A stretch of DNA of 64,000 bases from an uncultured Anaeromassilibacillus sp. (GCA_902472225.1 CABRNB010000001.1:29315-93314), one strand, 5' to 3'. Positions 23,568 through 28,604 are shown, counted from the stretch's first letter. The notes: generated from the letters alone by a model not told the origin. Numbers and translations: made by a program.

Positions 23568-24458
23568 TCAGCCGCGGTTGCCGCTCAGATAAAAAATGGC
23601 GATGCCGCCCGGGCCGGTGTGGGTGCCGAGAATCGGGCCGAGGTCGTTGACGATGATCTCCTTCGGATGGACGCGGCTTTTCGTCTGCTTATACAGATAC
23701 TTTGCATCCTCCTGAGCGTCGCAGTGCACAATGAACACCGTCTGATTTTCCGGCTGCTGGATGCTCTTTTCCATCTGGTTCAGCAGCGCGTCGAGAGACT
23801 GACGGCGGCCGCGCACCTTCATGGCGGGAATGAGATGACCCTCGTCGTCGATGCGGAGCACAGGCTTGATGCCGAGCATGGAGCCGAACAGAGCGGCAGC
23901 AGCGGAGAGACGTCCGCCGCGCTTCAAATGGTTGAGGTCGTCGACGGTGAAATACTGTGAGAGGCTGAAGCGGTGCACGCTCACCCATTCTGCCGCCTCA
24001 TCCAGGGTGGCTCCGGCTTTTTGCTTGAGGGCGGCGTAATATACGAGCAGGCCCTCGCCCATGGAGACTGCCAGGGAGTCGACCGGAACAACCCGGCGGC
24101 CCGGATATTTTTCCTTGAGCTGTTCAATGGCTTCGAGTGCGCGCTGGTATGTGCCGGACAGGGAGGAGGAGAAGCCGATATACAGCACGTCGAGCCCCTC
24201 GCGCAGATACGGCTCAAAGGTTTCGAGAAAGGTGACGGTGTTGATCTGGTTTGTCTTGGACATTTCTCCGGCGCGCAGGCGGCCGTAGAATTCCTTACTC
24301 GACATCTCACGCGCGTCCGGGTAATTGTGGTAAACCTCGTCGCCGAAGATGAACTCCATGGGAATGACTTCGACGTCGAGCTCCTCGACAAGCTTTGGAG
24401 TCAGATCGCTGGTGGAATCCGTGACAATCTTGTACGTGCAGCTGTTTTTGTTTGCCAT
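23568..24458 (-). CDS. DegV-family fatty-acid-binding protein
   Basis: YKIVTDSTSDL... EDD/DegV fold. ATG at 24458 with RBS GAGAGGAG; the listed ORF start is a TTG further upstream. Confidence 0.8.
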   Translation of the reverse strand: MANKNSCTYKIVTDSTSDLTPKLVEELDVEVIPMEFIFGDEVYHNYPDAREMSSKEFYGRLRAGEMSKTNQINTVTFLETFEPYLREGLDVLYIGFSSSLSGTYQRALEAIEQLKEKYPGRRVVPVDSLAVSMGEGLLVYYAALKQKAGATLDEAAEWVSVHRFSLSQYFTVDDLNHLKRGGRLSAAAALFGSMLGIKPVLRIDDEGHLIPAMKVRGRRQSLDALLNQMEKSIQQPENQTVFIVHCDAQEDAKYLYKQTKSRVHPKEIIVNDLGPILGTHTGPGGIAIFYLSGNRG

Positions 24459-24486
24459 TTCAGGCAGCGCTCCTCTCGACAATCAT

Positions 24487-25362
24487 TCAGTCCTTGTTGT
24501 CCGCCATGAAGAACAGGGCGATGGTGCCGGGGCCGGAATGGGCGCCGATCACCGGACCGATCATATTGATATAGATTTTGGTACCGGGGAACTTTTCGCG
24601 GATCTGGGCCGCGACATATTCGGCGTCCTGCTGGGCGTCGCCATGGCTCAGAAAAACGGTTTTGGCATTTTCCAGCTGAGCGGTTTTACCCATATGCTTG
24701 ACAAGGGCGTCAAGGGACTGGCGGCGGCCGCGCACCTTTTCGACCGGGATCAGATGACCCTCGTTGTCAACGTGAAGAACCGGCTTGATGCCGAGCATGG
24801 TGCCGACAAAGGCCGCCGTGCTGCTGACGCGTCCGCCGCGCTTCAGATGGTTGAGGTCATCGACGGTGAACCAGTGTGCGAGGTGGTTGCGGTTGTCAAT
24901 CACCCACTGCTCGAGCTCCTGCATGGAAAGGCCCGCGCGCTTCTGCTGCACGGCATAGTACACCAAAAGGCCCTCGCCCATGGAAGCGGCAAGCGTGTCC
25001 ACCACGATGATGGTGCGTTCCGGGAAGCGGGTGCGCAGCTCTTCGACCGCCATACAGGCGCTGTTGTACGTGCCGGAGAGGCCGGATGAGAACGCCATAT
25101 AGAAAAGATCATGACCGGCGCTGAGGATGGGGGTGAAGACGTCAATGAAAGTTGCCGTATTGATCTGATTGGTGGTGGAGCTTTCGCCGCTGCGGATGCG
25201 GCTGTAAAACTCTTTGGCACTCATATCACGTTCGTCGGGGTAGTTTCGATAGACCTTCTCGCCCATGACAAATTCCATGGGGATCACCTGGATGTCCAGT
25301 TCATCGATCAGGGCTGGGGTAAAGTCGCAGTTGGAATCGGTAATGATTTTGTAGTCGCTCAT
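24487..25362 (-). CDS. DegV-family fatty-acid-binding protein (tandem paralog)
   Basis: MSDYKIITDSNCDF... RBS GAGAGGAG. Confidence 0.8.
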   Translation of the reverse strand: MSDYKIITDSNCDFTPALIDELDIQVIPMEFVMGEKVYRNYPDERDMSAKEFYSRIRSGESSTTNQINTATFIDVFTPILSAGHDLFYMAFSSGLSGTYNSACMAVEELRTRFPERTIIVVDTLAASMGEGLLVYYAVQQKRAGLSMQELEQWVIDNRNHLAHWFTVDDLNHLKRGGRVSSTAAFVGTMLGIKPVLHVDNEGHLIPVEKVRGRRQSLDALVKHMGKTAQLENAKTVFLSHGDAQQDAEYVAAQIREKFPGTKIYINMIGPVIGAHSGPGTIALFFMADNKD

Positions 25363-25429
25363 AAATGGAAGCTCCTCTCATCTTTTATAGTATATCGGAA
25401 AGGGCCGCCTGGCCGAATTGTTTCATTTT

Positions 25430-25458
25430 ATTATACCTTTTTTTTGCGGATGTGTCCA
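25430..25458 (-). promoter_or_regulatory. sigma-70-like promoter for the DegV pair
   Basis: Minus strand: TGGACA-17 nt-TATAAT, about 65 nt upstream of the DegV ATG. Confidence 0.4.
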
Positions 25459-25482
25459 CCGTTTCCAGAGAAAAGCGGCGCG

Positions 25483-25515
25483 AAAAAAGGCTCCCCTCCT
25501 TGTGAGAGGGAAGCC
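25483..25515 (-). terminator. rho-independent terminator about 200 nt downstream of the DUF1292 gene
   Basis: Minus strand: GGCTTCCCTCTC-acaa-GGAGGGGAGCC TTTTTT. Confidence 0.5.
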
Positions 25516-25717
25516 GTTTTCTCAAAGTACCCCGCCTGGCCGTAATGTGTGAGAATAACCTGCCTACGGAAAGCAGGTGGGTGCCCGCCCAACGGTTTCA
25601 CGCTCCCTTCTTCCGGCAAAGCCGGGAGGTCTGCAATCTGCCGCCGGAGCTAAGCTCCCGATTCAAAAGTGTAGGGTTATCATACGCAAGTCCGCGAACC
25701 AGGCAGGAAAAGTCTTT

Positions 25718-26023
25718 TTATTCCTCTTCGGATTCCTCTGCCTCAAACATCTCGTCGAAGCGCTTTTCAAACTCAGCGGCAAGGCGATCGGCGAGCTCGT
25801 CGTCCTCCACCTCGGCCAGCTGCTGCTCGCCGTCCTCTTCGAAGGCCTGGAAAATATAGTAGGAGCCGTCGGCTTCTACCTGATCCTGCGGATCTTCAAA
25901 GGTGGGGAGCAGGGCGTAGAAGCAGCCCTCGTCGTTTTCTATGATATCCAGGATCTCAAACTCATGCTCCTGGCCGTCCTCGTCCACAAGTGTGAGCAGA
26001 TCCGGGCTGAAATCTTCGTTCAT
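25718..26023 (-). CDS. DUF1292-family small acidic protein
   Basis: MNEDFSPDLLTLVDEDGQEHEFEILD... with acidic C-tail. RBS AAAGGAG. The listed ORF start at 26161 is an upstream extension without an RBS. Confidence 0.65.
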   Translation of the reverse strand: MNEDFSPDLLTLVDEDGQEHEFEILDIIENDEGCFYALLPTFEDPQDQVEADGSYYIFQAFEEDGEQQLAEVEDDELADRLAAEFEKRFDEMFEAEESEEE

Positions 26024-26161
26024 ACCAAAGCATACTCCTTTCTGAAGAACTCTTTCGTATGTATTGTACATGCGATTTGCTCCGAAGTCAACCGAAAAAT
26101 CAATGAAAGAAAAAATAAACAGTTTTTTAAAAGTTTGTTTATATTTTTTCATCAAAAACAC

Positions 26162-26190
26162 TTGACAATACCGCGCCGGTGTAGTATAGT
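26162..26190 (+). promoter_or_regulatory. near-consensus sigma-70 promoter reading into the AT-rich noncoding island
   Basis: TTGACA (26162-26167), a 17-nt spacer, TATAGT (26185-26190), then TATAAT three nt later. Confidence 0.6.
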
Positions 26191-26196
26191 ATAATC

Positions 26197-27456
26197 ACAA
26201 CAAAGGAAGAGATACAAAGAAAGCAGACAAAATATCCGCTGAAAGCAAAAGAAGGAATTTTGCATTAACAAAGTTTTTTCAGCAAGGGAAGCGGATAAGA
26301 AGAATGTGGAAGGAATGTCTGCGAATTGTACCACTCACTTTTGTGCAGATTTAGACAGAAAGGGGTGCAGTCCAATGGACACCAAACCGCAGCAGTATCC
26401 GGCAGACGTTGTTCTGTTGGACGGCGTCTGCTGAGATAAAGAAAACGTGTTCTCTACAAGAGCGGTAAAGCTGATGAATACCAGAGGAATGAGAGCAAAG
26501 GCATAGAGGTATGTATTGCGGATCATTCGGAAAAGGGAAAGGCAGCGAAACCGTAAATATCGTGTAGACCAAAAGCTTTGAGCTGAATTGATGGTTAGCT
26601 CGGATTTTATTGAACCATTTGTACAGAAAGGAACGGGAAGTAAATCCAGTGCAGTTTCTGAGCATGGTCTCAATGAATCGAAGGTTTGCAGAATAGCGTG
26701 ATCTATTTTCAAAAACCCGATTGTAGCTTTTGGAAAAGCTTGAAACATTTTCGTTTCACGAAACAAAGAGTGCGGTAATTCTGGAAAATAGCTAAGCACG
26801 CAGTTGAAATTCTGAAAACTTTTTCTTAGGTGAAGCCCAATGTACAGCATTTGACCCTTCTGAAAAGAAGGAAACGGATATTTCCCTTTCGCGTAGACTT
26901 TTAGAAGTTACAGCAACATTCTTTGGAGATTAAGAATGACTGGAAACAAAATGAATCCCATGCAGTGATAAAGTGGAAGCTCCGGAAAAGGAGTGGATTC
27001 CCCTCAGCGGTGATTTTTAAGTGTTACGGCGACGTTCCGTTTATGGAATGACCGGAAACAAATAAAATTCCATGCAGTGATTCTATAGAAGCTTCGAAGG
27101 AGAAGCGTTGTTCCAAGCGGTGAATTTTAGTAGTTACGGCAACGGTTTTCATCAGAAGACAGACCGGAAACAAACGATTTCCAAGCAGTGAACCTATAGA
27201 GCTTCAAAGAAGAAGCGTTGTTCCCAAGCGGTGAATTTTAGCAGCTCCGGCGACGGTTTGCGGATGCAGGCTGACCGGAAGCACAAGACTCCCAGCAGTG
27301 AACAAAGAAGCTTCGAAGGAGAAGCAGTTTATCACCAGCAGAGATTTATGTAGTTACAGCAACATTTCTCCGGTTTGAGAGAATGACTGTAAACCCTTAA
27401 TCCCATGCACAGATAAAAGTATTACGAGAGCCCCGGCCGGTACCGCCGGGGCTCTC
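26197..27456 (+). ncRNA. candidate long noncoding RNA (about 1.26 kb) containing about 4.5 degenerate tandem repeats of about 110 nt; no credible ORF on either strand
   Basis: Strong promoter upstream and a GC-rich 12-bp hairpin at the 3' end. GC about 42 % versus about 62 % in flanks. Only junk ORFs in the six-frame track. Conserved submotifs in every repeat unit. Confidence 0.45.
26895..27420 (+). repeat. tandem direct repeats, about 110-bp period, roughly 4.5 copies, about 65-75 % identical
   Basis: Recurring blocks TTTTAG-(T/C)AGTTACGGCAACG, GACCGGAAACAAA, CATGCAGTGA, GAAGCTTCGAAGGAGAAGCGTTGTTCC, AAGCGGTGA. GTTAC(G/A)GC recurs at 26907, 27023, 27134, 27245 and 27354. Confidence 0.8.
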
Positions 27457-27460
27457 TTGA
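27426..27460. terminator. GC-rich hairpin closing the noncoding island (possibly bidirectional)
   Basis: GAGAGCCCCGGC-cggtacc-GCCGGGGCTCTC. U-rich on the minus-strand side, TTGATCT on the plus side. A second hairpin GTCCGGA...TCCGGAC follows immediately. Confidence 0.55.
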
Positions 27461-27680
27461 TCTGTCCGGACCACGGATCCGGACGGTGGAAACGCATTTG
27501 CCTTTTCTCCTGCTCTTTGGCGGAGCCCCGTTTTGCAGTTGGTTTCCTGTGAAAAGGAAATGTGAATTAATTGTAAACTTTTGGCTGTTGAGTGAGAAAA
27601 TCACTTTTTTCCTGTTCTGTTTTTGCTATACTGAAAACCACAAGCTCCCTTTTTGGGGCAGCAGAAAGGCGGAATTTTAG

Positions 27681-28604
27681 ATGGATCATAAAATTTGGGA
27701 TGTTATCATCGTCGGAGGCGGTCCCGGCGGCTACACGGCGGCTTTGTACTGCGGCCGTGCGGCGCTTTCCGTTCTTGTCCTTGAGAAAATGGCGCCTGGC
27801 GGTCAGATGGGGACGACGGATCAGATTGACAATTATCCCGGCTTCCCGGAGGGAATTAACGGATTTGATCTTGCCATGCAGATGCAGCAGAGCGCTGAAA
27901 GATTTGGTGCGCAGACGCGCCTTGAGGACGTCGTCCGTCTCTCTCTGGAGGGAGAGATCAAAACGGTCGTCACTTCCTCCGGCGAATACAAGGCGCGCAC
28001 CGTGGTTCTGGCTACCGGGGCGGCTCCCCGTGAGCTGGGGCTGCCTCGGGAACGCGAGCTGCGCGGCCGCGGCGTTTCTTATTGCGCGACGTGCGACGGC
28101 ATGTTTTATCGCGGCAAAGAGGTCGTGGTGGTAGGCGGAGGCAACACAGCGGCCGCCGATGCGCTGTATCTCTCAAAGCTCTGCGGAAAGGTGACGATTG
28201 TGCACCGCCGCGATACGCTGCGTGCTTCGAAAGCATATCTCAAGCCTCTTCAGGAGTGCGGCAACGTGGAAATCCTTTGGGACAGCCTGCCGGACGAGAT
28301 TCTCGGAGAGAACGCTGTTTCCGGCTTGCGGGTGAAAAATAAAAAGACAGGCGAGACGCAGGATGTGCCTTGCGCCGGTATTTTCGTTGCAATCGGAAAC
28401 GAGCCGAATACGGCTCTCTTCGCGGACAGTGTTGCTCTCGACGGCGGCTATGTCGCTGCGGATGAAACGACCCGTACCAATCTTCCGGGCGTTTTTGCGG
28501 TGGGCGATGTTCGCCGCAAGCCGCTGCGCCAGGTGGTTACCGCCGTTGCGGACGGCGCGATGGCTTCCCATTTCATTGAGGAATACCTCTCCGAGGTTCA
28601 TTGA
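27681..28604 (+). CDS. trxB: thioredoxin-disulfide reductase
   Basis: GGGPGG FAD motif, redox-active CATC, GGGNTA NADPH motif. 307 aa. Confidence 0.9.
   Translation: MDHKIWDVIIVGGGPGGYTAALYCGRAALSVLVLEKMAPGGQMGTTDQIDNYPGFPEGINGFDLAMQMQQSAERFGAQTRLEDVVRLSLEGEIKTVVTSSGEYKARTVVLATGAAPRELGLPRERELRGRGVSYCATCDGMFYRGKEVVVVGGGNTAAADALYLSKLCGKVTIVHRRDTLRASKAYLKPLQECGNVEILWDSLPDEILGENAVSGLRVKNKKTGETQDVPCAGIFVAIGNEPNTALFADSVALDGGYVAADETTRTNLPGVFAVGDVRRKPLRQVVTAVADGAMASHFIEEYLSEVH

Follow-up and report, generated by a model that had tools for sequence, protein, structure and literature searches.

Between a gene for a DUF1292 protein and trxB, the window (by which we mean the whole 64,000-nucleotide stretch of DNA that was analysed) contains ~1660 nt without credible genes; and it is within this island that a set of degenerate tandem repeats is found. 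The question these raise is whether they represent a neutral duplication of DNA or copies of a folded RNA module and, if the latter, to what kind of RNA they belong and what such an RNA might do.

Extent and register of the repeats

The sequence-only reading had described about 4.5 copies of a ~110-nt unit at 26895–27420, a description confirmed both by profile search and by Tandem Repeats Finder. The latter reports an array of period 111 at 27050–27325 (2.5 copies, 78% matches, score 325), whilst a profile of five units matches at 26890–27004, 27006–27116, 27116–27226 and 27227–27335, and partially at 27337–27429 (E 1e-14 to 1e-29), with no further match below E = 1 in the 64-kb window. The mean column identity of the five units in this register is 72%; in a model-based alignment, pairwise identities range from 49 to 82%, with ~80% being reached only by the adjacent units 3 and 4.

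Individual units are 106–120 nt long (period ~111 nt) and their lengths are not multiples of three; together with a six-frame check over 630 nt, in which the longest open stretch is at most 59 codons, this upholds the earlier view that the repeats are non-coding. A coding reading of either the array or the larger RNA described below is likewise rejected, the antisense ORFs found in public gene calls having no Pfam match and not being conserved. Public gene calls also put spurious ORFs of 171–175 aa on the large RNA. Two further judgements of the sequence-only reading hold: the array is not a CRISPR, as the entire 111-nt period is homologous between copies, with no alternation of a 24–48-nt repeat and unique spacers; nor, in the sequence covered, does it appear to be REP-like, there being no other copy in the window or in 95 other loci (820 kb). 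We also rejected a tRNA/tmRNA-like array, ARAGORN finding no genes in 25400–27700.

When the array is recut in a register based on structure, with each unit starting at the motif YCCNWGCRGTGA, we see five full periods (26836–27400) followed by a terminal half-period (Table 1), so that the periodicity starts within the ‘core’ of the RNA, at 26836; in the half-period that ends the array, the terminator hairpin substitutes for the hairpin here called P3. The arrangement of the terminal motif A copy recurs in two related loci, L123 and L118. Judged by comparison of sequences, period 5 is the orthologue of the last unit in related species.

Table 1. Positions of the RNA, its repeat periods and the neighbouring genes, counted from the first letter of the window
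Feature	Position	Strand	Basis or remark
6S RNA	25525–25712	-	RF00013, 66 bits; just downstream of DUF1292
DUF1292 gene	25718–26071	-	Pfam match
Promoter-like site (TTGACA, 17-nt spacer, TATAGT)	26162–26190	+	11/12 consensus positions
Core of large RNA	26197–26835	+	Purine-rich; nhmmer homology
Period 1	26836–26955	+	R1 covariance model 76.6 bits, E 1e-13; most diverged unit
Period 1, motif A	26836–26848	+
Period 1, P3	26856–26860/26867–26871	+
Period 1, motif B	26884–26896	+
Period 1, P1	26907–26913/26940–26947	+
Period 1, P2	26917–26923/26932–26938	+
Period 2	26956–27067	+	R1 96.8 bits
Period 2, motif A	26956–26968	+
Period 2, P3	26979–26983/26990–26994	+	GCTCC/GGAGT
Period 2, motif B	27002–27012	+
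Period 2, P1	27023–27029/27052–27059	+
Period 2, P2	27033–27039/27044–27050	+
Period 3	27068–27178	+	R1 107.4 bits
Period 3, motif A	27068–27080	+
Period 3, P3	27091–27106	+	GCTTC-GAAGGA-GAAGC
Period 3, motif B	27113–27122	+
Period 3, P1	27133–27139/27164–27171	+	GTTACGG/CCGGAAAC
Period 3, P2	27143–27149/27156–27162	+
Period 4	27179–27288	+	R1 102.9 bits; recent duplicate of period 3, ~80% identical
Period 5	27289–27400	+	R1 83.4 bits; best matches L112_p6, L123_p5
Terminal motif A copy, TCCCATGCACAGA	27401–27413	+	Regex scan; opens sixth, truncated period
Terminator hairpin GAGAGCCCCGG...CCGGGGCTCTC, tail TTGATCTGT	27426–27465 (hairpin 27426–27456)	+	11 bp, GC-rich; inverted repeat; in P3 position of last period
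trxB	27681–28604	+	307-aa Pyr_redox_2 thioredoxin reductase

Secondary structure of the unit

To analyse the fold we used an alignment of 23 non-redundant units drawn from five species, for which RNAalifold predicts three helices—P3, P1 and P2—with 18 pairs in total. P3 is a 5-bp hairpin with a 6-nt purine-rich loop, whilst P1 and P2 together make a long irregular hairpin; P1 (GYTNCNG/CNGNAARC) includes a 1x2 internal loop (A versus GA), and P1 meets P2 at a junction with CAA in one strand and A in the opposite one. Conservation covers the P1 stem and the two internal loops (A versus GA, CAA versus A), the sequence of P2 being free and yet paired.

Double changes are found at 13–14 of the 18 pairs, and paired cells make up 92.4% of the total in the alignment given to RNAalifold and 93.9% in the model-fitted alignment. 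Column shuffles give 82–83%, with none of 500 equalling the observed pairing, though as the 23 units are related by descent this control overstates significance; slid controls, in which pairing partners are displaced by 1–3 columns, are free of such weakness and give 30–53%. Doubly changed cells number 54–57 against ~18 expected. P1 is 99.3% paired, with swaps between GC (14) and AU (9) at one pair and between UA (19) and CG (4) at another; the P1 of period 4 (GCTCCGG/CCGGAAGC) shows compensatory changes with respect to that of period 3. All seven pairs of P2 covary, with sequence and loop free.

The suggestion that each unit takes up the same RNA fold, as opposed to being a neutral duplication, is thus strongly supported, alignment and folding of the units giving a shared structure (P3, P1 and P2, 92–94% paired) with compensatory changes; but the helices concerned are other than the one originally put forward. 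That stem, CGTTG...CAACG, pairs in 55.7% of cells over 24 units, the same as in shuffled controls (55.6%), and shows no covariation. A second hairpin, between GGAA in the 3′ strand of P1 and UUCC in the next motif A, was also rejected, with 61–78% pairing at three of its four pairs, 96% at an invariant G-C and no compensatory changes; as was a K-turn or loop-E in the internal loops of P1, the consensus nucleotides being absent by eye. An all-against-all scan for column covariation, within units and between neighbouring ones, gave no more stacked helices or pseudoknots.

We can also assign the strand. There are four times as many G·U as A·C cells (40 versus 10), and the 93.9% pairing read on the plus strand would be 86.7% on the minus strand, which identifies the plus strand as the one that folds; the covariance model R1 gives the units of the window 77–107 bits when read on the plus strand, with no minus-strand score above 9.9 bits. 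Thermodynamic folding does not distinguish the two (z = -3.9 versus -3.7).

Flanking the helices are conserved motifs predicted to be single-stranded, namely the 12–13-nt motif A/B, which occurs twice per period, and an A-rich linker, GGAAACAAA. A loose regex for motif A/B gives 12 matches on the sense strand of the RNA and none on the antisense, with 43 on the plus strand of the other 62.7 kb. Taken as a whole, we consider it very probable that the repeats are an array of selected, structured RNA modules within a larger non-coding RNA.

The larger RNA and its relatives

What the sequence-only reading had overlooked is that the array makes up no more than the 3′ half of a conserved RNA of much greater length. 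We predict one plus-strand non-coding RNA of ~1270 nt (~26197–27465), with the array as its 3′ domain; from the features that follow we infer a single, abundant transcript, both ends of which are predictions. Transcription is predicted to start near 26197, and a TTGAC(A/T)–17 nt–TAtAnT site lies at an equal relative position in 10 of 10 homologous loci examined, as it does, read by eye, in L244 (L021 outside this set). The core, found as a single copy in the window, has conserved blocks such as GTCCAATGGAC, several of them common to all homologues, one of these being a hairpin with a TCTGTTGG loop and three covarying pairs in its stem, and three to four copies of a purine-rich AAAGGnnTGAGTCCAAWGnACAGTTT-like motif, of which motifs A and B of the units look like derivatives; from promoter to terminator, the plus strand is rich in purines. 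The terminator hairpin is conserved in L112, L115, L116, L118, L119, L123 and L003, and distant homologues have canonical hairpin and T-run terminators on the same strand. A consensus scan of the plus strand of 26836–27400 found no internal promoter or terminator.

Contigs with an identical TrxB represent the same species, and here the island is 98.8–100% identical with equal copy number, polymorphism within the species amounting to too few differences to be informative. A search anchored on TrxB gave 80 loci (TrxB identity ≤70%); the repeat unit is absent from all of them and the core is present only in L043 and L021 (Ruminococcaceae UBA5397), so synteny with trxB is not a conserved anchor. 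L043 has the same DegV–DegV–6S–DUF1292 neighbourhood, with a ~800-nt non-coding stretch that has its own consensus promoter and canonical terminator, blocks in common with 26340–26890 of the window, and no repeats. Taking DegV as a second anchor gave the intermediate relatives: core plus six units in L112/113 (DegV 93%), five in L123 (91%), four in L115–117 (85%; a protein cluster that includes Candidatus Caccousia avistercoris) and three in L118/119 (83%). The core alone is seen in L120/121 (DegV 69%; ~785 nt in L120) and L122 (65%; 620 nt), as it is in L021 and in L244, the cultured Caproiciproducens galactitolivorans (~480 nt, read from sequence); in core-only relatives it spans 480–800 nt. 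Homology of the core by nhmmer has E values of 1e-51 to 1e-119 for L112, L123, L115–117 and L118/119, and of 1e-5 to 1e-41 for L043, L120, L122, L244 and L021.

Looking for the unit in the window and in relatives, a check proposed in the sequence-only reading, we find a copy number of 3–6 between species, with all unit-bearing contigs carrying the array at the same locus; the R1 model finds no unit in the rest of the window, in the array-less homologues or in the 95 other Clostridia loci (820 kb). As far as available sequence shows, the unit appears specific to one locus and one clade. In Rfam 15, 6S RNA is the only match in the window, and relaxing E to 10 brought up nothing for either the island or a short homologue; phage and plasmid collections gave no match by BLAST, a loose pattern search of viral contigs gave single chance matches only, and the pattern GTCCAATGGACA...TCTGTTGG retrieved from metagenomes only the same species and chance matches. 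No description of the large RNA was found in the literature searched. What we see is an apparently undescribed RNA family of Oscillospiraceae/Acutalibacteraceae-like gut Clostridia, located beside DUF1292 and 6S RNA, from both of which the RNA is always divergent in homologues.

Within the array, units are closest to their positional counterparts in other species (p1 to p1, p2 to p2, p3 to p3, last to last) and have not been homogenised; the array is therefore older than the species splits. Unit 3 departs from this pattern, having undergone independent re-duplication in the window (p3/p4, ~80% identical), in L112 (p3–p5) and in L123 (p3/p4), and it is through internal duplication of this unit that copy number would have been adjusted between 3 and 6. 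The units have diverged to 50–65% identity, with each still foldable. Relatives lacking the array end in one recognisable motif A (CCAATGTAC) at the same position, consistent with an array that grew from the single terminal module of a shorter ancestral RNA; and, as these relatives manage without it, the array elaborates the RNA without being an essential part of it.

Possible functions and comparison with known RNAs

The explanation we favour overall, with slightly less than even confidence, is that of a separately transcribed non-coding RNA of ~1270 nt whose 3′ module array serves as a multivalent platform. The mechanism itself, that of a multivalent sponge or scaffold, is argued by analogy and we put it forward more tentatively: at least ten copies of one short single-stranded motif would be displayed on rigid hairpin spacers, allowing the RNA to bind, sequester or organise an RNA-binding factor that recognises the motif—a logic comparable to that of CsrB or the eukaryotic NORAD—with copy number (3–6) tuning capacity. 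The DUF1292 protein encoded next to the RNA is acidic; it is unlikely to be an RNA binder.

It is highly improbable that the repeats are instead a neutral or selfish tandem duplication, or protein-binding sites in DNA (iterons), with no function at the level of RNA. Slippage readily makes tandem duplications, and unit 3 has clearly been re-duplicated independently in several lineages; against this, compensatory double substitutions maintain three helices, the excess of G·U over A·C is strand-specific, orthologous units are kept across species that are 83–93% identical in DegV whilst the sequence of P2 is wholly turned over, and the array fits precisely into the interval that a conserved promoter and a conserved terminator delimit. 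Neutral duplication would not easily account for the retention of an array of foldable, diverged units. We give very little weight, too, to a cis-regulatory leader of trxB, in which tandem sensing modules would control read-through of the terminator at 27426–27456. The gene does lie on the same strand ~220 nt past the terminator in the window, L112, L115, L120, L122 and L123, but it is not next to the RNA in L118/119, L043 or C. galactitolivorans (L244); a conserved promoter-like region separates terminator from trxB, no alternative anti-terminator pairing was seen, and it is DUF1292 and 6S RNA, on the opposite side, that are the conserved neighbours. With promoter and terminator kept, the RNA always divergent from DUF1292/6S and the gene on its other side varying (trxB, an HTH gene, MatE or an unnamed 270-aa ORF), the repeats are better described as the 3′ domain of a transcription unit than as a leader.

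The regular periodicity could also reflect a precursor from which an endoribonuclease, cutting each period once, would release ~111-nt sRNAs that act singly, in the manner of ToxI or of polycistronic sRNA/tRNA arrays. The conserved single-stranded motif at unit boundaries is a possible cleavage site, the unit has a size typical of sRNAs, and the order of promoter, repeats, terminator and gene resembles a type III TA layout. We nevertheless think this unlikely: what follows the array here is a thioredoxin reductase gene, which has a conserved promoter region of its own and whose place is taken by other genes in L118, L043 and L244; the locus has no ToxN-like gene; the units are 111 nt, not 34–45 nt, and 50–65% identical where ToxI-type repeats are near-identical; and core and first unit are fused, as are last unit and terminator. 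Still less probable are modules that recruit no protein, being tertiary-structure blocks packed pseudo-symmetrically or else small-molecule aptamers. Freely varying helices combined with conserved nucleotides in junctions and loops (GC at the P1/J boundary, CAA, GA) do make a riboswitch or ornate-RNA pattern, and OLE, ROOL and GOLLD, other large Bacillota RNAs, form multimers; yet the column scan gave no more helices or pseudoknots, the GGAA/UUCC hairpin is unsupported, no Rfam aptamer matches, and a copy number of 3–6 in close species argues against a fixed closed architecture.

A broader proposition, on balance doubtful, is that these large modular RNAs form a bacterial class of their own, having a family-wide core (480–800 nt) that occurs across Acutalibacteraceae-like Clostridia, invariably next to DUF1292 and 6S RNA, and, in one clade, a 3′ array of 3–6 individually conserved 111-nt modules; the array would be a repeating RNP body or a self-organised RNA architecture without parallel in known bacterial RNAs, its copy number tuning the stoichiometry of a housekeeping partner. 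Large structured bacterial RNAs are rare, and nearly every one studied has given unexpected biology. Here the hosts are abundant, poorly studied human-gut Clostridia, the promoter is near-consensus and natural variants offer 0, 3, 4, 5 or 6 modules; the short form in cultured Caproiciproducens galactitolivorans makes the RNA experimentally approachable. Were the array to serve as a multivalent scaffold or decoy, it would give this phylogenetic group its first example of CsrB-like logic, with a different and much larger module, and would be a clean case of a bacterial non-coding RNA growing by module duplication under structural selection.

Among known systems, CsrB, CsrC, RsmY and RsmZ are alike in being stand-alone non-coding RNAs with their own promoter and terminator, repeated stem-loop units that present one short motif many times over, and a copy number that varies between species. 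They differ in module, ~20-nt GGA hairpins there against 111-nt two-hairpin modules here, and in the density of GGA. CsrB has about one GGA per 17–20 nt, mostly in hairpin loops; the ~1270-nt RNA has 32 against 25.8 expected from composition (one per 40 nt, with homologues similar), and inspection of the alignment by eye finds GGA in ~13 of 23 P3 loops. With GGA not enriched, and in roughly half of P3 loops, the logic of a CsrA sponge is ill-fitting. The Rfam models for CsrB, CsrC and RsmX/Y/Z give no match to the RNA even at E up to 10, and to our knowledge there is no CsrB-type RNA in Clostridia.

ToxI-type repeats are 34–45 nt long, near-identical and processed by an adjacent toxin of the ToxN family. 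Their arrays share with ours the succession of one promoter, tandem RNA repeats, terminator and then a gene, whereas our units are of 111 nt and 49–82% identical, and the gene that follows is trxB or another housekeeping gene, with none of ToxN, CptN or TenpN type. ToxI is mentioned in PMC8040213. OLE, GOLLD, ROOL, raiA/ModT and HEARO resemble the RNA in exceeding 500 nt, in occurring in anaerobic Bacillota with their own promoter and terminator, and in having conserved nucleotides interspersed with covarying helices. The covariance models for OLE, GOLLD, ROOL, HEARO and raiA give no match, sub-threshold hits included, and we know of none of these RNAs with an internal tandem array of paralogous modules.

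In Listeria, LhrC1-4 are tandem intergenic RNA units of ~110 nt, each gene having its own promoter and terminator. The size of the units and their tandem intergenic position are shared; here, by contrast, the units abut without spacers, and no plus-strand promoter or terminator was found among them. The mammalian NORAD is built of about five diverged repeat units of several hundred nt, with short protein-binding motifs beside a conserved hairpin, and acts as a multivalent decoy for PUMILIO. It serves as an analogy only, in that both are long non-coding RNAs of diverged repeat units with short motifs next to a hairpin; NORAD is eukaryotic, unrelated in sequence and has a known partner. Tandem riboswitches (glycine, c-di-GMP-I) likewise place at least two structured modules of ~90–110 nt head to tail, but theirs form the 5′ UTR of a regulated gene and match known aptamer models, whereas the RNA described here has up to six modules, ends in a terminator, and has no dependent ORF and no known model. 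A tandem riboswitch aptamer pair is present in L244.

Motifs, hairpin and expansion within the large RNA

The core of the large RNA (the predicted + strand ncRNA) is marked by a purine-rich motif, (AAAGGnnTGA)GTCCAAWGnACAG(TTT), which occurs three to four times per core across the whole family; judged by their sequence, motifs A and B (YCCNWGCRGTGA), the conserved single-stranded motifs of each ~111-nt unit in the 3' array, look like derivatives of it. A second site of expansion by duplication in this RNA family is the GA-rich insertion carried near the RNA 5' end by L118 and L119 (loci of related species), within which we see short tandem duplications with periods of 11-32 nt. The core also contains a terminator-like hairpin that is probably a structural helix rather than a terminator, since L112, another related locus, retains the hairpin but has no T-run.

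Public gene calls place ORFs of 171 aa (window) and 175 aa (L112) antisense to the large RNA. Neither has a Pfam match, the portion of the RNA covered differs from species to species, and such ORFs are missing from the gene calls of the related loci L115-117; they are probably spurious annotations.

Coordinates of features in the window and in related loci
Feature	Position	Strand	Remark
Antisense ORF, 171 aa	window 26335-26850	-	
Antisense ORF, 175 aa	L112 2199-2726	+	
Purine-rich core motif	26355-26380, 26495-26530, 26825-26848		equivalents in all homologues
Core hairpin	26577-26604	+	GAGCT...AGCTC, then T-run
GA-rich insertion, ~350 nt	L118 about 2180-2540	minus strand of locus	5' part of RNA
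6S RNA	25525-25712	-	RF00013 match, 66 bits
Two tandem DegV paralogues	23568-25362	-	ahead of 6S/DUF1292 block
Two tandem c-di-GMP-I aptamers	L244 1059-1286	-	65 and 69 bits
Second hairpin, GTCCGGAccacggaTCCGGAC	27464-27484	+	small; immediately 3' of terminator tail (seen in window)
Box GAGAAAATCACTTTTTTCC	27594-27612	+	about 70-85 nt 5' of trxB start

The interval before trxB

Between the terminator and trxB, the box, followed by TTTTTGCTATACT, is kept in L112, L115 and L123 (all loci with core and unit array), and may represent a trxB promoter or operator.

The 6S RNA, DUF1292 and DegV neighbourhood

On the other side of the large RNA, the 6S RNA of the window lies directly 3' of the DUF1292 gene and on the same strand, with the large RNA always divergent from the pair. 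The same DUF1292-then-6S order is also found in the core-only loci L043 and L244 (Caproiciproducens galactitolivorans). The DegV paralogues of the window share ~57% identity, and DegV worked better than trxB as a synteny anchor for finding the large RNA. In C. galactitolivorans, the riboswitch aptamer pair has a peptidase A24 / Flp pilus region downstream.
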